Notes under the pieces: model-generated
Told to the model about the DNA's origin: nothing
The model's input: the letters and a program-made list of their open reading frames with translations, nothing else
Databases searched by the model: none
Shown: piece by piece, positions 48,847 to 55,910 of the stretch
How positions within the stretch are numbered: the first letter of the stretch is position 1
How the letters are laid out: each line of letters begins with the position of its first letter
DNA from: Deltaproteobacteria bacterium
GTDB taxonomy: Bacteria; Myxococcota; JACRCW01
Assembly (NCBI GenBank): GCA_016218805.1
Contig: JACRCW010000071.1
Coordinates: forward strand, 1-64,000
DNA: 64,000 nucleotides
Direction of reading: 5' to 3'
Made by a program: the position numbers and the translations under genes

Positions 48847-51800
48847 TCAGCCGCCCACGGCCGCGGGACCCAGCCGCTGCAGCGAGCCCTCCAACAGCGA
48901 CCCGTAACGGCGGTAGCCGGTGCGCTCCGCGCGGGCCACGCCCTCTTCCAGGGCGGCCATGGCGCCGGCCTCGTCACCGGCGTGCAGGCGGGCCAGGCCC
49001 AGGTACCACAGGCCCGCCAACGTGATGCGGTTGGCTTCGTACGCGCGCGCGCGCGCCAGGCCCGCTTCAATGTCCGCCAGGCCCTCCTGCACGCGCCCCA
49101 GCCGCACGGAGGCAAGCCCGCGGCACAGGCGCGCCTCGGCCTCCGTCGCCGCCAGCGCCAGCTGCTCGGACGCGCGGCACGCCTTGCGGGCGGCCTCCAG
49201 CGCGGCCTCGTTGCGCTCCGCGGCCAGGTGCGCGGTGGCAATGACGGTGTCCGCAAACGCCACCGCATCCACCGCACCGGAGCCGTCAAACGCCTTGCGG
49301 GCCTCCTCGGCGCCCTTGAGCGCCTCGTCCAGGCGCCCCTCGTCACGCGCCAGGATGGCCAGGTTCAACGTGGTGGTGGCCACCATGCGCCGGTGCCCCA
49401 CGGCCAGCGCCAGCTCGCGCGCCTTGCGGTAGGCGGTGTCCGCCTCGGAGAAATCGCCGATTTCGTGGCTGGCCTGGCCCAGCAGGTTCATGCACTGGCA
49501 GGCGCGCAGCCGCTCGCCGCGCATCTGCGCGTGTGCCAGCACCTGCGTGAAGTCCCGCCGCGCCGCCTCCAGGTTGCCCGTCTCCAGCCGCCGCGCGGCA
49601 ATGGCCATGCGCGCCGCCTGCTCCTCCTGCTCCTCGCCAATGGCACGCGCCAGCTCCAACGCCTCCATGTTGTACCGCAGCCCGCGGTCCGGTTGGCCGC
49701 GCCGGTCATAGATGGTGCCGCACAGGCGCTTGGCCTTGCAGCGCAGGCGGTGGGCGCCGCCGCGTTCGGTCACGGACAGCACGGAGGTGATGATCTGCAG
49801 CGCCTGGTCCGTGTTGCCCAGCAGCGTGAGCGCATTGGCCTCATGGAAGCGCGCCTCCGCGTACAGCCGCGGCTCCGCCTTGTCCGCCAGCGCGGGCAGG
49901 CGCTCGTGGCACACCTTCTCCACCTCCTTCATGTTGCCCAGCGTGGACAGCGTCTCCAGGCGCAGCAGCAGGATCTCCAGGCTGCGGCGGGACATGGCCG
50001 GGTCATGGCTGCGCTGGGCACCCTGCACGTCCAGGACCTGTTCCGCCTCCTGCACGTAACGCATGGCTGCGCGCGTGGCGTTGACGTCCAGCGCGCGGCG
50101 CGTGGACTGCGCCAGGTAGTCAAACGCGCGCAGCGGCTCACCGCCCAGCTTGTAGTGGCGCGCCAGCGTCTCCGGCTCCGCGCCGCGCGCGCTGCGCCGG
50201 CCAAAGTCCTCCAGGCTGTGCGCCATCAGCAGGTGGAAGCGCGCTCGCCGCTCCGGGTCCAGCGTCTCGGAGACCGCCACGCGCATCTCCTCGGAGGCAA
50301 ACGCGTACCCGTCGTCCTGGCCCTCCACCAGGATCTTGCGCTTGATGAGCTCGTCAATCGCGTCCAGCACCTCCTCTTCGGGGCGCAGCACCACGCGCAT
50401 GAGGACCTCGCCGTGCAGGCGTCCTTCCAGCACGCTGGCGCGCTCCGCCACGTCCCGCGCGGCCGCGGACACGGAGGCCAGGCGGTCCTCAATGGGTTCG
50501 CCCTCACCGGTCATGGACACCGGCACGTCATTGGACGTGGCGTGGTCCAGGTCCACAAACCCGCGGCCCTTGCCCGCGCGCAGTGCCCACTTCTTGCCCG
50601 CGCGCACCAGGTCCCCGCGGTCCGCCCAGGCGCGGATGCGCTCCTCCACCAGGAACGGGATGCCGCGCGTTTCCTTGTACAGCGCCTCGCCCAGCGCGGT
50701 GGCCACGTCCTCGCCGCCCACCATGGCGCGGAGCATCTGCGCGGCCTCGCCGGGGGACAGCGCCTTGAGCGTGATGACCTTGGCGCGCTGCAGGGCGCCC
50801 AGCTCGGAAATCATCCGCGCCGCCGGCGAATCCGGCTCCACCATCGCCGGGTCCACCGTCACCACCAGGCCCAGCTTCTCGCCGCGGCCGCGCTCGCCCA
50901 TCACGAGCCGCGTGGCCACCTGCTGGATGACGTCCATGGACGCCTCGTCCGCGGCGTGCACGTCCTCCAGCACCAGCACGCGCGGCCGCACCCGCGCCAT
51001 GCGCCCCAGCACGTCCAGCAGCGCCGCGCGGAAGCGCACCAGCTCATCATCCGGTCCCAGCGCCGGCAGCGGCTTGGGACGCAGGGAGGCGGGCAGGCGG
51101 TGCAGCGCGGGCAGGTGCCGCACCAGCGCCGGGCCGTCCGCGCCCAGGATGCTCTCCACCTCCTGCGGGCTGCGGGAGCCCCACTCGCGCACCAGGGATT
51201 CAAACAGCTGCCCAAACACGGCAAACGGTTGTGACGCGTTCTTCCCCGCCGCGCCCCACACCAGCTCCAGCCCCTGCTCCTTGAGCGTGGCGGCCACTTC
51301 CTTGATGAGGCGGCTCTTGCCGCTGCCGGTCACGCCGGACAGCGCCACCACGTGGCCCTGGCCCTGCGCGGTCTTCTCCAGCGCGGTGCGCAGCGCCTGG
51401 AACTCGCTCTGCCGCCCCACCATGCCCGGCGCAAACAGCGGGTCCTTGGACATCTGGAAGGGCGGCGGTGCCAGCCCCGCGCTGGTCTGCTGCAGCTTCT
51501 TGATGTGTTCGTCAATCCCCTTCACCGCGTCCTTGAGCGCGCTGATGACGTCGTCAGACGTGGGGAAGCGCTTCTCCGTCTCCTTGTGCAGCAGCTTCTC
51601 CGCCACCGCGCGCAGGCCCGGGTTCACCTCCGGGTTGAAGCGCGTGATGGGCGGCGGGATGGTGCGCGCGTGGTGGTACGCGTAGCCCACAGACGTTTCC
51701 GAGAAGAACGGGTGCCGCCCGGCCAGCAGCTCATAGAGGATGACGCCCAGGCAGTAGAGGTCCGCGCGGCCGTCCAGGTCTATGCCCAGCGCCTGCTCCG

Positions 51801-52419
51801 GTGACAGGTACTTGAAGGTCCCCACCACCATGCCGCCGGAGGAGGTGTCCCCGGTGTTGGGCCCGCCGAACTGCTTGGCGATGCCGAAATCCATCAGCTT
51901 CACGACGCCGGAGTTGGTGACCAGGATGTTGTCCGGCTTGAGGTCGCGGTGGACAATGCGGTGCGCGTGGATGGCCCCCAGCGCAAACCCCACCTGCACA
52001 ATGGCCTCGGCCAGCCGCCGCACGCGCCCGGGCTCGTTGAGACGCTTGCGCAGCGCGTCCGGCAGCGTGTCCGCCGGCGGCGGGTCCTTGCCCAGCTTCA
52101 CAATGGGTTCGTCCCCGTCCAGCCAGCGGCGCAGCTCCTTGCCCTCCACCAGCTCCATGGTGAAGTAGGGCGCGCCGCGGTAGGTGCCCGCCTCAAACAC
52201 GCGCACCACGTTGGGATGCACCACGCGCTGGATGGCGCGGAACTCGCGCTTGAACCGCAGCGCGCTGTCACCCTTGTCCGCCGTCTCCGGCGGCAGCATC
52301 TTGAGCGCCACCTGCGCGCCCGTGCGCTCGTCACGCGCGCGGAACACCACGCCCATGCCGCCCCGGCCTATTTCGCCCAGGAGCGTGTAGTCCCCAATCC
52401 GGTCCGGTGCTGACAGCAT
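48847..52419 (-). CDS. Ser/Thr protein kinase with P-loop NTPase (AAA_16/STAND-like) and TPR domains
   Basis: GRGGMG, VALK, HRDLKPDN, DFG, YLSPEQ; GVTGSGKS, LVLEDVH; helical repeats at the C-terminus. Confidence 0.96.
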   Translation of the reverse strand: MLSAPDRIGDYTLLGEIGRGGMGVVFRARDERTGAQVALKMLPPETADKGDSALRFKREFRAIQRVVHPNVVRVFEAGTYRGAPYFTMELVEGKELRRWLDGDEPIVKLGKDPPPADTLPDALRKRLNEPGRVRRLAEAIVQVGFALGAIHAHRIVHRDLKPDNILVTNSGVVKLMDFGIAKQFGGPNTGDTSSGGMVVGTFKYLSPEQALGIDLDGRADLYCLGVILYELLAGRHPFFSETSVGYAYHHARTIPPPITRFNPEVNPGLRAVAEKLLHKETEKRFPTSDDVISALKDAVKGIDEHIKKLQQTSAGLAPPPFQMSKDPLFAPGMVGRQSEFQALRTALEKTAQGQGHVVALSGVTGSGKSRLIKEVAATLKEQGLELVWGAAGKNASQPFAVFGQLFESLVREWGSRSPQEVESILGADGPALVRHLPALHRLPASLRPKPLPALGPDDELVRFRAALLDVLGRMARVRPRVLVLEDVHAADEASMDVIQQVATRLVMGERGRGEKLGLVVTVDPAMVEPDSPAARMISELGALQRAKVITLKALSPGEAAQMLRAMVGGEDVATALGEALYKETRGIPFLVEERIRAWADRGDLVRAGKKWALRAGKGRGFVDLDHATSNDVPVSMTGEGEPIEDRLASVSAAARDVAERASVLEGRLHGEVLMRVVLRPEEEVLDAIDELIKRKILVEGQDDGYAFASEEMRVAVSETLDPERRARFHLLMAHSLEDFGRRSARGAEPETLARHYKLGGEPLRAFDYLAQSTRRALDVNATRAAMRYVQEAEQVLDVQGAQRSHDPAMSRRSLEILLLRLETLSTLGNMKEVEKVCHERLPALADKAEPRLYAEARFHEANALTLLGNTDQALQIITSVLSVTERGGAHRLRCKAKRLCGTIYDRRGQPDRGLRYNMEALELARAIGEEQEEQAARMAIAARRLETGNLEAARRDFTQVLAHAQMRGERLRACQCMNLLGQASHEIGDFSEADTAYRKARELALAVGHRRMVATTTLNLAILARDEGRLDEALKGAEEARKAFDGSGAVDAVAFADTVIATAHLAAERNEAALEAARKACRASEQLALAATEAEARLCRGLASVRLGRVQEGLADIEAGLARARAYEANRITLAGLWYLGLARLHAGDEAGAMAALEEGVARAERTGYRRYGSLLEGSLQRLGPAAVGG

Positions 52420-52550
52420 CCGTCTCCGCGGCGTGCCTGAAGAGTGCTCCCCCGTCGCCGTGGCGGACCCTACCAGAGCGCCGCATCGCCAACAAACTTG
52501 CGTACTTGCGCGGGTGCGAACCGTTCCCGAGGCACCCGGCTCCCACCGCC

Positions 52551-52697
52551 ATGGACCTTGGCCCCCTCATCTTCCTGGCGCTGTACGTGGTGCTGCAGGC
52601 GTTTGTGTTGCCGCGGCTGGGCGTGCGGACTTGAATGGCCCCCAACCCGCGCCGTGACGCGCGGGACCAGGACCGGCCGGGAGACGGCTGTGGCTGA
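52551..52697 (+). CDS. candidate small membrane selenoprotein, 48 aa, Sec at TGA 52632-52634 (27 aa if UGA is a stop)
   Basis: MDLGPLIFLALYVVLQAFVLPRLGVRT-U-MAPNPRRDARDQDRPGDGCG; one TM helix; SECIS-like hairpin after the UGA; RBS weak. Confidence 0.7.
52636..52669 (+). promoter_or_regulatory. putative bacterial SECIS element
   Basis: 7-bp stem CCCGCGC(52646-52)/GCGCGGG(52659-65) starts 11 nt after the UGA; loop CGUGAC has GU at positions 2-3; lower stem UGG/CCA. Confidence 0.65.
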
Positions 52698-52713
52698 CGC
52701 CGCGTCTGGACGG

Positions 52714-52905
52714 ATGACGGCGCTGCGGCGGACGCTGTTCCCCTACGCGGCGGGCGCCGTGGGCGGCGCGCTGGGGTTCATCGCCGTGGCGCTGGTGGTG
52801 TCCGGGCTGGGGTCCACCTGTTCGTTCCTGTGCCGGCCGCACGTGGCGGGTGTGCTGGGCGCGGTGGCGGGACTGTACGGCGTGTTCCTGGCGCGCCACC
52901 CCTGA
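52714..52905 (+). CDS. small two-TM protein with Cys-containing loop (DUF6132-like)
   Basis: GAVGGALGF...GSTCSFLCRP...GAVAGLYG; 63 aa. Confidence 0.7.
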   Translation: MTALRRTLFPYAAGAVGGALGFIAVALVVSGLGSTCSFLCRPHVAGVLGAVAGLYGVFLARHP

Positions 52906-52917
52906 GCTGAGTGAGCC

Positions 52918-54750
52918 TCACGCCTGCAGCTCAAAGACCTCCACGGCGTCCGCCTTGCCCTTGAGGCTCTTGGCCCCACGCGCGGCCACCTTGAGGCGCC
53001 CCATCACCGCCTGCGCGGTCAACGGCCCCAGCAGGATGCCGCCCGGCGGCGCAATGCCCTCCAGCCGCTGCGCCACGTTCACCGTGTCACCCAGGCAGGT
53101 GTACTCCAGCCGCAGCGGGCTCCCCACGGTCCCCGCCAGCAACGGGCCCGAGTTGAGGCCAATCCGCAACGCGAGCCGTTCGCCCTCGGGCCGTCCGGCC
53201 ATGAGCGCGGCAAACGCCTCCTGCATGGCCAGCGCGCACCGCGCGGCGCGCAGCGCGTCGTCAGCGGCGGGGAACGGCGCGCCGAACACGGCCATCACGG
53301 CGTCACCGATGTACTTGTCCACGGTGCCGCGGAACTCGTAGACCACGCGCGTCATCTCGCCGAGGTAGCCGTTGAGCAGCTCCGCCACCTCCGTCGTCGT
53401 GTGCCGGTCGCAGTAGCTGGTGAAGCCGGAGAGGTCCGTGAACATGACGGTGGCGTTGATAGGCTCCAGGAACAGCCCGCCCTGGCCCTCCTGCGCCTGC
53501 TTCTGCATGAGCTTCTCCACCACCTCGCGCGTGTGGAAACGCTCCAGCGTGTGACGCAGCGCCTCTTCTTCAGCCACGCGCTCCTTGAGCTGCGCGCGTT
53601 CAATGCCCAGCGCAGTGAGGTGCCCCAGCGCCGCCACCAGGTCCTCCTCCCACTCCTGGAACGGGACCTTGCGCGTCACGTAGATGACGCCCACGGGCGC
53701 GGTGTCGCGCAGCATGGGCACGGCCAGCACGGCCTTGAGGTCCAGGTCCACCACGGAGATGTTCTTGGCAAACCGGGCGTCCGCGCTGGCGTCCTCCGTC
53801 GTCACGGCCACGCGGCGGCGCAGCGCCTGGTCCACCACGCTGCGGCTGAAGCGCTGCGGCACCGCCGCGCCGGAGGTGCGCACCACGCGCGGGACAATGG
53901 TGGTCGCGTCCACCGGGCCGGGCGGGCACATCAGCAGCGCCACCGTCTGCGCGCGGATGGCCAGCATGATGGTCTCCGCCATGGCGTTGAGGAAGTCCTC
54001 CTCGCCCTTGGCGCCCTGCAGTTCGCCGGCCACGCGGTAGACCAGCCGCAGCGCCAGTTCCTGGGGGTCCCGCTGCTGCCGCGCCAGCGTGGCCAGTTCC
54101 GCCACCTCCTGCGCAATGGTGATGCCCTGCAACGGCGTGGCGTGCAGCGTGAGCTTCTTGAGCAGCGCGCTCTCGCCCACCGCGCGTTCACGCGTGGTCT
54201 CCCCCTCCGTCCCCGGTGAACTTTTCCAGTGCACCTGCAGCGCCGGCATGATGAGGCTGATGGCCGCCGCCGGTGTGTGCTGCGGGGTCAGCGGCGCGCG
54301 CGCTTCGGGACCGGCCTGGCGGGAGGCAACCAGCGCGTCCACCCGCAGCGCGGCCGCCACGCTCGCCGTCGTCTGGTCGTCAAATGCGTTGGCCACCTGC
54401 GCGGGCGGTTCGCTCACCGCCGCCACCGTGCTGTCCGTCACCGCCGCGGGGCGCAGCCGCACCGCCCACTCACCCACCGCCACGTCCTCACCGCCGTGCA
54501 GCAGCGCGCGTTGGATGCGGTTGCCCGCCACAAGCGTGCCGTTGAAGCTCCCCAGGTCCTCCAACGTCACGTGTGTGCCGGTGCCCACGCGCAGCAGGGC
54601 GTGGCGGCGGCTGACCTGCTTGCCCTGCAGGATCACATGGCAGGTGGGCTCACGGCCCAGGATGTACTCGCCCGGCGGGAGGCGCACGCTGATGGGGTCC
54701 TGGCCGGCCGTGGTGCACTCCAGCACCCAGCGCGCCGCGGTCTTGATCAT
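52918..54750 (-). CDS. FHA-GAF-class III adenylate/guanylate cyclase
   Basis: FHA GR...VSRRHA...DLGSFNGT; GAF DARF..S.....LAVPM; cyclase FTDLSGFT, DKYIGDAVMA, GDTVNVAQRLE. Confidence 0.95.
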   Translation of the reverse strand: MIKTAARWVLECTTAGQDPISVRLPPGEYILGREPTCHVILQGKQVSRRHALLRVGTGTHVTLEDLGSFNGTLVAGNRIQRALLHGGEDVAVGEWAVRLRPAAVTDSTVAAVSEPPAQVANAFDDQTTASVAAALRVDALVASRQAGPEARAPLTPQHTPAAAISLIMPALQVHWKSSPGTEGETTRERAVGESALLKKLTLHATPLQGITIAQEVAELATLARQQRDPQELALRLVYRVAGELQGAKGEEDFLNAMAETIMLAIRAQTVALLMCPPGPVDATTIVPRVVRTSGAAVPQRFSRSVVDQALRRRVAVTTEDASADARFAKNISVVDLDLKAVLAVPMLRDTAPVGVIYVTRKVPFQEWEEDLVAALGHLTALGIERAQLKERVAEEEALRHTLERFHTREVVEKLMQKQAQEGQGGLFLEPINATVMFTDLSGFTSYCDRHTTTEVAELLNGYLGEMTRVVYEFRGTVDKYIGDAVMAVFGAPFPAADDALRAARCALAMQEAFAALMAGRPEGERLALRIGLNSGPLLAGTVGSPLRLEYTCLGDTVNVAQRLEGIAPPGGILLGPLTAQAVMGRLKVAARGAKSLKGKADAVEVFELQA

Positions 54751-55910
54751 GTGTGCTCCGTGCCGTGCACCAGGGTTCCTTCGCCGTAGATGGCCACCGG
54801 GACGGAGTGGGCATCCAGCACCGGCCCGCTCCACACCACCACGTTGGCATCCTTGCCCCGCTTGAGCGATCCCACGCGCCCGTCCAGCCCCAGGATGGCG
54901 GCCGCATCCAGCGTCACCGCCCGCAGCGCCGCCTCCGCGGGCAGGCCGGAGCGCGCGGCGACGATGGGAATGAGGTGGAACTGCCCCGCCGAGATGATGG
55001 GGTGATCACTCATCAGCGCCATGCGCACGCCCGCCGCGTGCAGCCGCGCGGGCGTGTCCGTGCGCTTGTCAGCCAGCTCCAGCTTGGTGCGCGCGGACAT
55101 GTCCGGGCCCACAATGACGTCCACGCCGCGGCGCGCAAGCACGTCCGCAATCAGGTACGCCTCCGTGCCGTGGTCCAGGATGGCGCGGACGTGCATCTCA
55201 TCCGCCACACGCAGCGCCGTCTCCAGGTCAAACGCGCGGTGCGCGTGCACCCGCAGCGGGAGGGTGCGCCGGATGACCGGCAGCAGCGCTTCCATGGCCA
55301 GGTCCCGCGGCGCGTCCAGCCGGTGGCGCACGGCGGCATAGGCGCGCGCGCGCTCCAGCGTCTGGCGCAGGATGGCGGCCACGGCCATGCGGGTGGCCGG
55401 GGCTTTGCGCTGTTCCCGGTAGATGCGGCACGGGTTCTCCCCAAACGCGACCTTCATGCCCGGCCGCTCCGCGTACGCCATCTGGGCGATGCGCTCCGGC
55501 CACGTGCGCAGGCTCACCGCCAGGCCGCCCACGACGTTGGCGCTCCCCGGCAGCACGCACACGGTGGTCACGCCGGAGAGCAACGCGTCGCGAAAACCGC
55601 TGTCCCGCGGGTTGATGCCGTCCTCCGCGCGCAGCTGCGGTGTCACCGGGTCCGTGGTCTCGTTGTAGTGCTCCGCCTCCGCGCCGCTGACGCCGCCCTG
55701 GTGCAGCCCCGCGTGCATGTGCGCGTCCACAAATCCCGGCAGCGCGTGGCAGCCCCGGTAGCGGCGTACCTGTGCGCCGCGCGGTACCGGGACGCGGCGC
55801 GCCGGACCCACGGCGGCAATCCGCCCGTCGCGCAGCACCAGCCGGCCGCCCGTGAAGGAGGGCCCCTCCACGGGATGCACCGTGAGTTCATCCAGAACGA
55901 CGACCGCCAT
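54747..55910 (-). CDS. amidohydrolase family protein
   Basis: PGFVDAHMH, PGSAN, KVAFGENP, HAHR, DHP, GSLKRGKDAN. Confidence 0.93.
   Translation of the reverse strand: MAVVVLDELTVHPVEGPSFTGGRLVLRDGRIAAVGPARRVPVPRGAQVRRYRGCHALPGFVDAHMHAGLHQGGVSGAEAEHYNETTDPVTPQLRAEDGINPRDSGFRDALLSGVTTVCVLPGSANVVGGLAVSLRTWPERIAQMAYAERPGMKVAFGENPCRIYREQRKAPATRMAVAAILRQTLERARAYAAVRHRLDAPRDLAMEALLPVIRRTLPLRVHAHRAFDLETALRVADEMHVRAILDHGTEAYLIADVLARRGVDVIVGPDMSARTKLELADKRTDTPARLHAAGVRMALMSDHPIISAGQFHLIPIVAARSGLPAEAALRAVTLDAAAILGLDGRVGSLKRGKDANVVVWSGPVLDAHSVPVAIYGEGTLVHGTEHT

Follow-up and report, generated by a model that had tools for sequence, protein, structure and literature searches.

We found that an intergenic stretch in a Myxococcota genome (Deltaproteobacteria bacterium, assembly GCA_016218805.1) in all probability holds a single selenoprotein gene, 52551-52697, whose 48 residues include a selenocysteine (Sec) encoded by an in-frame UGA and served by a hairpin just downstream. 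Positions refer to the window, i.e., the 64,000-nt stretch of contig JACRCW010000071.1 that was analysed, and we put the probability of this reading at roughly 90%. By sequence comparison, the gene belongs to a conserved family with a UGA, Cys counterparts, and a covarying hairpin, which supports the proposal of an earlier note, made from the letters of the window alone, that the UGA encodes Sec. When a ribosome arrives at the UGA at 52632, the hairpin 11 nt downstream would act as a bacterial SECIS element and recruit SelB with Sec-tRNA(Sec); selenocysteine would be inserted in place of termination, and translation would continue to the TGA at 52695. The predicted product has one N-terminal helix (residues 4-22), Sec28 directly past the helix, and Cys47 near the end of the tail. 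For this 48-residue protein the dependence on SelB, the topology, and the function are inferred. The features are collected in Table 1.

Table 1. Features of the probable selenoprotein gene and of its surroundings, in window coordinates.
Feature	Position	Strand	Basis
Probable selenoprotein CDS, 48 residues: 27 codons, Sec-UGA, 20 codons, stop	52551..52697	+	Sequence, coding score, homologs spanning the UGA
Single hydrophobic helix, residues 4-22, presumed membrane anchor	52560..52616	+	AlphaFold2; hydrophobic in all aligned members
In-frame UGA, probably read as Sec, residue 28, right after LPRLGVxT	52632..52634	+	Homologs, Cys counterparts, strain contig
Putative SECIS hairpin, 7-bp stem, loop CGUGAC, 11 nt past the UGA	52646..52665	+	Fold, homologs, strain contig
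Codon of Cys47, a candidate partner for Sec28 close to the C-terminus	52689..52691	+	Tail Cys in 47/50 members; kept in strain variant
True stop TGA	52695..52697	+	TGA is the ordinary stop of the genome
63-aa gene, two hydrophobic segments, CSFLC motif	52714..52905	+	Coding score 49 bits
Ser/Thr kinase with AAA and TPR domains, left flank	48847-52419	minus	Pfam/NCBIfam scans
FHA-GAF-adenylate cyclase, right flank	52918-54834	minus	Pfam/NCBIfam scans

The layout described in the earlier note, namely a 27-codon ORF ending in TGA, a frame running on to 52697, and a 7-bp stem with loop CGUGAC after an 11-nt spacer, was present in every detail. The ORF starts with ATG at 52551 (MDLGPL...LPRLGVRT up to the TGA at 52632-52634), and the 20 codons past the UGA (ATG GCC ... 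GDGCG; MAPNPRRDARDQDRPGDGCG) close at the TGA of 52695-52697. The perfect stem (CCCGCGC/GCGCGGG) pairs 52646-52652 with 52659-52665, and a few lower pairs were added beneath it in a 63-nt fold. It is followed by ACCAGGACCGG; a T run is absent on both strands, so that the U-tract that would make the hairpin an intrinsic terminator is missing. The ribosome-binding site is weak, as the note had cautioned, with GAGG alone 18 nt upstream. TGA closes 1369 of the 1522 confident long ORFs in this genome and is therefore the ordinary stop here.

The stretch 52420-52917 sits between two minus-strand genes, encoding the kinase and the cyclase. At loci L082 and L102 (genomes G056 and G081, of another taxonomic family), the gene next upstream encodes a fusion of a protein kinase with an adenylate/guanylate cyclase domain; in the window (48847-54834) kinase and cyclase are separate and flank the gene, and the recurrence may be chance. 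The 63-aa gene at 52714-52905 has a conserved GSTCSFLCRPHVAG core. Its protein has one homolog at 88% identity (P0002), and a distant homolog is encoded on a different contig in G001; Pfam and NCBIfam scans gave no match, and scans of metagenomes and genomes gave nothing, or false positives sharing CSFLCRPH inside a glycosyltransferase-like protein. It may be an operon or co-transcription partner of the selenoprotein gene in this genome only, not elsewhere.

A codon log-likelihood score trained on the 1522 long ORFs of the genome (G+C 72%) gave the first 27 codons 25.8 bits, or 0.96 per codon. They rank 38 of 6718 intergenic small ORFs, in a list whose top includes ribosomal proteins and a KdpF-like peptide, and are clearly coding-like. 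The 20 codons past the UGA scored 3.6 bits (0.18 per codon), an ambiguous signal: 8% of open post-stop stretches reach this value, 7-16% of true coding windows are equally low, and 77% of the 20-codon stretches past true TGA stops are open. The caution in the earlier note that hairpins are common at such G+C content was borne out, the fold of 52620-52700 being no better than that of shuffled sequences (z = 0.27) and 12/1369 to 42/1369 true TGA stops carrying one. The lower count refers to perfect hairpins of at least 7 bp, 8-14 nt past confident TGA stops and with an early loop G; depending on the criterion, SECIS-like hairpins follow 0.9-3% of the ordinary UGA stops of this genome. Genome-wide, 143 coding-frame TGAs have a SECIS-like hairpin, among which the TGA at 52632 ranks 7th by downstream coding score. 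Elsewhere in the window, the TGA at 1951 (+) has an 8-bp hairpin 14 nt downstream (loop CGGAU) and an open frame; this is probably an ordinary gene end, the coding score past it being low (0.24 per codon).

Other searches of the window and its surroundings added little. Rfam covariance models had no match at E <= 10 in 51500-54000. A repeat element was rejected as the source of the hairpin, which has one exact copy in the genome, as was a frameshift joining the two small ORFs, the intervening frame scoring negative and the main contigs and the strain variant described below being free of indels. No paralog was found by tblastn of the peptides against the genome itself and the first loci. A word-index protein search with the 48-aa peptide returned no candidate, the peptide being too short and diverged for it and the collection containing no Sec forms. 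A DNA search in 40 relatives aligned just the flanking kinase and cyclase, and the kinase ortholog of G001 has a different gene upstream. From the window alone, before homologs were at hand, we judged the Sec reading to have between one chance in twenty and one in ten. The significance of the feature comes from the homologs, the window by itself offering no more than chance would.

The read-through peptide was searched against four genomes of the class, and a match with one in-frame TGA was obtained in G001, of the same family (E = 3.9e-8), and in G002, of another family (E = 0.086). Both read ..LQxxxLP(R/K)(L/M)GVxT-TGA-ATG and have good Shine-Dalgarno sites, and in both a hairpin with the loop kept (CGUGAU, CGUGC) lies 11-12 nt past the TGA; the stem of G002 differs in sequence, yet is complementary (CUGCCG/CGGCAG). 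A profile of three peptides, from G001, G002, and the source genome (G000), was searched in 401 genomes of the phylum and had matches at E <= 0.05 in 108 of them. Further work used the 90 matches at E <= 2e-4; 29 rows (E 3e-4 to 0.05, mostly without TGA) were set aside as unreliable. An in-frame TGA was present in 88 of the 90, spread over 84 genomes, four of which have two copies; the two others were G067, a Cys form, and G110, a partial match. Carriers made up 54/67 genomes of taxonomic family f15, 17/18 of f4, and 3/4 of f21, counts that are not independent, the genomes compared being kin, and the large-genome family f11 gave weak TGA-less matches only.

Fifty loci were read, comprising 30 returned by the profile search (among them the near-identical L088 and L089) and 20 picked down the hit list for genus spread. 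LP(R/K)xGVxT precedes the TGA at all 50, and the frame stays open for 18-37 codons further. A TAA or TAG at the Sec position, which the earlier note had said would speak against its reading, was seen at 0/50 loci, all having TGA. The codon right after the TGA in the first 30 loci is ATG in 18, GCN in eight, GGN in three, and GTG in one. The tail contains a Cys at 47/50 loci (none in L104, L114, and L121), either five residues past Sec (U-M-S-x-x-C; mostly in G002 and f4) or close to or at the C-terminal end (..GC, the form seen in the window). Since a Cys codon also occurs in about half of ordinary open post-stop tails (553/1079), the fixed positions of the Cys weigh more than the count. Homologs of the read-through peptide were expected by the earlier note to have TGA or Cys at position 28 and to be conserved beyond it, and this is what was observed, with TGA in 88/90 matches, Cys in G067, the tail open at 50/50 loci, and a tail Cys at 47/50. 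The C-terminal Cys that it had suggested as a redox partner recurs among family members without being universal, 3/50 tails having no Cys.

To count hairpins we used a strict criterion: a start 8-14 nt past the TGA, at least 6 bp with at most two GU pairs, and a loop of 3-7 nt with G within its first two positions. Such a hairpin was found at 47/50 loci, with GC stems of 6-9 bp that differ in sequence, compared with 42/1369 true TGA stops of the genome and 39/1833 other TGA triplets in the first 30 loci. Of the three loci without it, two have imperfect or bulged stems by eye, and L093 has a 6-bp stem just below the score cut-off. Hairpin conservation, proposed earlier as a check, thus holds, with covarying stems in place at 47/50 loci against a background of 2-3%. 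The first 30 loci show 24 different 5' arms. Because the MAFFT alignments (A4, which was given to RNAalifold, and A5) set the hairpins out of register, pairs were counted by script. Among 174 cells (29 sequences by six loop-proximal pairs), 61 show a double-sided change relative to the commonest pair, and each of the six stem positions shows both C-G and G-C. All 174 cells pair, as they must by construction, each stem having been chosen for maximal pairing; in controls that shift the 3' arm by 1-3 nt, 57-79 of 174 do. Loops include GGUC (5), GGC (5), GUC (4), GGA (3), CGGGC, and CGUGAC-like forms, and hairpins built in the same way occur in the SelD genes of the lineage. These patterns indicate that the hairpin is conserved through compensatory changes.

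In G067, TGC stands at the Sec codon, the tail continues without interruption (..LGIPT-C-MSGACAVPRN..), and no SECIS-like hairpin is present; this is the one locus at which Cys forms were examined for a hairpin. The protein is named hypothetical protein at NCBI. Public records include another Cys form, P0004 (TCMSGAC), and P0005, which is 86% identical to the G067 protein over about half its length and ends ..LGVST, one residue before the Sec position. Of 1.84 billion protein cluster representatives, the profile matched 1786 at E <= 1e-3, of which 48 reached E <= 1e-10. We read 40 of these representatives. Full-length proteins with TCMSGAC (45-90 aa) are numerous, several others are stumps of 29 residues with the ending ..LGV(P/S)T, and in a few the Sec position is occupied by W, G, R, or S. 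Looking up the clusters of 10 homologs gave no names. The stumps agree with the earlier expectation that standard callers would truncate or miss the gene. Since callers drop the gene or record a 29-residue stump, the selenoproteomes of carriers are undercounted. The public records with W, G, R, or S in the place of Sec are P0016, P0017, P0020, P0023, P0026, P0040, and P0050; W and G would be explained if the genes were called with genetic codes that assign TGA to Trp or Gly. In two long records, P0119 and P0136, a family member is continuous with either an ArsC/low-molecular-weight-phosphatase-like part or a thioredoxin; whether the fusions are genuine or reflect read-through into adjacent genes, arsenic- and thiol-related neighbours are thereby added. 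One Cys form was found in a Planctomycetales MAG, where a divergent ArsR-type regulator lies on one side and genes for a DsrE-like protein, a rhodanese with a YgaP-type membrane domain, and TauE/SafE lie on the other.

A strain variant was available from environmental contigs. Contigs of three runs of one groundwater study hold the stretch, with no RNA-type run among the runs listed. One contig of 168 bases is 86% identical over 52580-52742, a comparison that does not list differences within ~30 nt of the contig ends. Ahead of the UGA it has two listed changes (52616 and 52625), both synonymous, and it retains the TGA, the complete hairpin, Cys47, and the terminal stop without change. Past the hairpin, 13 changes fall within 41 nt, compared with 0 in the hairpin, and eight codons of the tail are changed, five non-synonymously and three synonymously. 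The tail sequence itself appears barely constrained. In run X1, contig depth over 52638-52689, the hairpin region only, was raised by ~30, and a second contig has C>G at 52668; this suggests short contigs of other strains or organisms that match the GC-rich stretch.

The genome was searched for the Sec machinery, the presence of which the earlier note had named as a check, and the outcome was mixed: tRNA-Sec and a Sec-containing SelD were found, selA and selB were not, and relatives have selA. The tRNA-Sec (72.7 bits; ARAGORN anticodon tca) lies at G000:C19:92476-92569 (-), and selD, at G000:C28:1894-2829 (-), has an in-frame TGA at the Cys17-equivalent catalytic position, in the motif GG-U-AAK. 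Since SelD carries this TGA at its active site, the organism must decode Sec. Four family searches of the 170-contig assembly, which is 92.4% complete, found neither selA nor selB, the best GTPase matches being IF2, LepA, and TypA, and neither gene is next to tRNA-Sec. Among the nearest relatives, 5/8 of those searched have selA and a TGA-containing selD. In the phylum, 296/401 genomes have selA (a tally that includes the unpublished genome G195, a non-carrier), i.e., 80/84 carriers of the TGA form compared with 216/317 non-carriers (Fisher odds ratio 9.4, p = 4.5e-8, which overstates the association because the genomes are related). The carriers without a selA match (G000, G224, G362, and G388) are all fragmented, in 170-620 contigs. 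Three molybdopterin-domain matches in the genome were inspected for a Sec-type formate dehydrogenase, and none has an in-frame TGA. Further selenoprotein candidates with coding signal on both sides of a TGA (sets of 69 and 5) were rejected, as all looked like adjacent genes. The family gene may help explain why Sec decoding persists in this genome.

The missing selA and selB, together with the weak ribosome-binding site, raise the question of whether a true selenoprotein family is represented here by a relic that terminates at the UGA after loss of both genes. We consider this quite improbable, since tRNA-Sec is intact and SelD itself needs Sec decoding, the assembly is fragmented and incomplete, selA is present in the closest relatives, three further carrier genomes, likewise fragmented, give no selA match, and the gene, hairpin, and Cys are intact and kept by the strain variant. 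Very improbable, in our judgment, is a UGA that acts as an ordinary stop, in which case nothing but a 27-residue membrane peptide would be made and the hairpin, between this ORF and the 63-aa gene, would serve termination, stabilisation, or regulation. The fall in coding score at the UGA from 0.96 to 0.18 bits per codon would fit such a stop, as would hairpins after 3-5% of true stops, the fold z of 0.27, and the fast divergence of the tail in the strain variant. However, Cys-form homologs read through this position, with C-M-S-G-A-C spanning it, and the one such locus examined (G067) lacks the hairpin. In addition, the position holds TGA and never TAA or TAG in 50/50 loci, with the tail open at 50/50 and a positioned Cys at 47/50, and a terminator would be expected to have a U-tract after the stem, which is absent.

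Two coupled tiny ORFs, of which one ends at the UGA and the other starts at the adjacent AUG (UGAAUG) and encodes a hydrophilic 20-mer, are hardly credible. An ATG does follow the TGA directly here and at 18 of the first 30 loci, but at 11 of those 30 the TGA is followed by GCN or GGN. Neither can serve as an initiation codon, which excludes a separately initiated second ORF; moreover, both parts form one reading frame in the Cys forms. The reading we favour remains a single gene whose UGA is very probably decoded as Sec.

For the product of such a gene, AlphaFold2 with a 32-row family alignment gave one helix at residues 4-22 (pLDDT 87-89) and a tail at pLDDT 50-68. This model would correspond to a single N-terminal membrane helix and a short disordered tail, with Sec28 at the membrane surface. 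A cytoplasmic tail is the likelier orientation by the positive-inside rule, since the N-terminus is acidic and Arg/Lys directly follow the helix. Neighbouring genes were named by Pfam and NCBIfam scans. A DUF302 gene adjoins the family gene at 11/50 loci from four taxonomic families (f15, f22, f26, and f30). An SQR-like pyridine-nucleotide-disulfide oxidoreductase is adjacent at three loci, with scores below cut-off on the NCBIfam 'Nterm_to_SelD' and type III SQR models; rhodanese is adjacent at two loci, in addition to the Planctomycetales cluster, and thioredoxin at one, with two further loci having it nearby. An arsenite-methyltransferase-like (ArsM) gene lies directly downstream at two loci, an ECF sigma factor is a neighbour at five, and a YeiH-type transporter at two. 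At many loci, that of the window among them, all of these neighbours are absent.

DUF302 genes occur inside sox clusters of sulfur oxidisers, according to the accessible part of one report (PMC5037610), a setting that supports a sulfur-linked redox role without establishing one. As the likeliest function we tentatively suggest that the protein could be a membrane-tethered selenol/thiol pair that forms a selenenylsulfide and passes electrons, or a sulfur or selenium atom, to partners in the handling of sulfide, persulfide, or metalloids. Equally speculative is the wider proposal of a widespread, undescribed family of bacterial micro-selenoproteins with one membrane helix, similar in build to eukaryotic SELENOK/SELENOS, that might serve, through Sec at the membrane surface and a tail Cys, as a tethered relay for sulfide, persulfide, selenium, or arsenic together with the DUF302, SQR-like, rhodanese, and thioredoxin proteins encoded alongside. 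If true, the gene could also report selenium supply, since failed Sec insertion leaves a bare 27-residue membrane peptide. With DUF302, SQR-like, rhodanese, thioredoxin, and ArsM genes recurring as neighbours, it becomes directly testable whether selenium use is tied to sulfur or metalloid chemistry at the membrane.

The family was compared with existing inventories. No family in Pfam-A 2025 or NCBIfam r20 (June 2026) matches the G000 peptide, and eight further members, Cys form included, gave chance-level hits alone in these collections (E 0.09-0.2). Atlas neighbours of the family proteins are entries named 'hypothetical protein' with no Pfam family. The 119 families in Table 1 of a 2026 review (PMC13188914) include no membrane micro-protein or T-U-M/A motif, the accessible part of the BSepDB paper (111 families) has no mention of 'membrane', and that of Zhang 2006, with 11 selenoproteins for Anaeromyxobacter, has none alike. 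Candidate selenoproteins from groundwater MAGs are attributed to Deng et al. (2026) in the accessible part of the review (PMC13188914). Text searches turned up no description either. This widespread family appears undescribed in the inventories checked (the 2026 review, BSepDB, Pfam, and NCBIfam), and Deng et al. (2026), Haft and Tolstoy (2025), or supplements might already contain it. Sec recoding itself is textbook knowledge, and what appears to be new is the family, which is common (84/401 sampled genomes of one phylum), has Cys relatives in at least one other phylum (the Planctomycetales MAG), and would rank among the smallest bacterial selenoproteins. To our knowledge, no other bacterial selenoprotein is a bare membrane anchor with a Sec/Cys tail.

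In selenoprotein genes of the E. coli fdhF type, an in-frame UGA is followed immediately by a SECIS hairpin that starts about 11 nt on. The present family resembles these genes in its in-frame UGA, its ~11-nt spacer, its Cys homologs, and the Sec machinery of its carrier genomes, as well as in a loop with G then U at positions 2-3 (GGUC in many members, CGUGAC here). In contrast, its members are single-helix membrane proteins of 48-60 residues with no recognisable fold or thioredoxin-like domain, and their motif is U-x4-C or U followed by a C-terminal Cys, rather than UxxC or CxxU. Closer at hand, the SelD genes of the lineage have the same succession of a UGA, 9-12 nt, and a GC-rich stem of 7-8 bp with a short loop and an early G (CGGGC in G000; GGA or GCG in relatives), although the protein is unrelated and the SelD hairpin overlaps the conserved GPGD coding segment.

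According to the 2026 review (PMC13188914) and a preprint, KCU-star/DUF466 and SaoC are likewise tiny, contain a Cys/Sec pair, and are as a rule cut short by gene callers, but they have CU at the extreme C-terminus and no membrane helix, and their NCBIfam models matched none of nine family members. Pfam scans with the family returned no selenoprotein K/S family, so that any likeness to SELENOK and SELENOS is one of build. These two eukaryotic proteins have one membrane helix near the N-terminus and a disordered cytosolic tail that contains Sec, which SELENOS pairs with a Cys. Their Sec lies close to the C-terminal end and their SECIS in the 3' UTR, whereas the bacterial family would have its Sec at the end of the helix and its SECIS inside the CDS.
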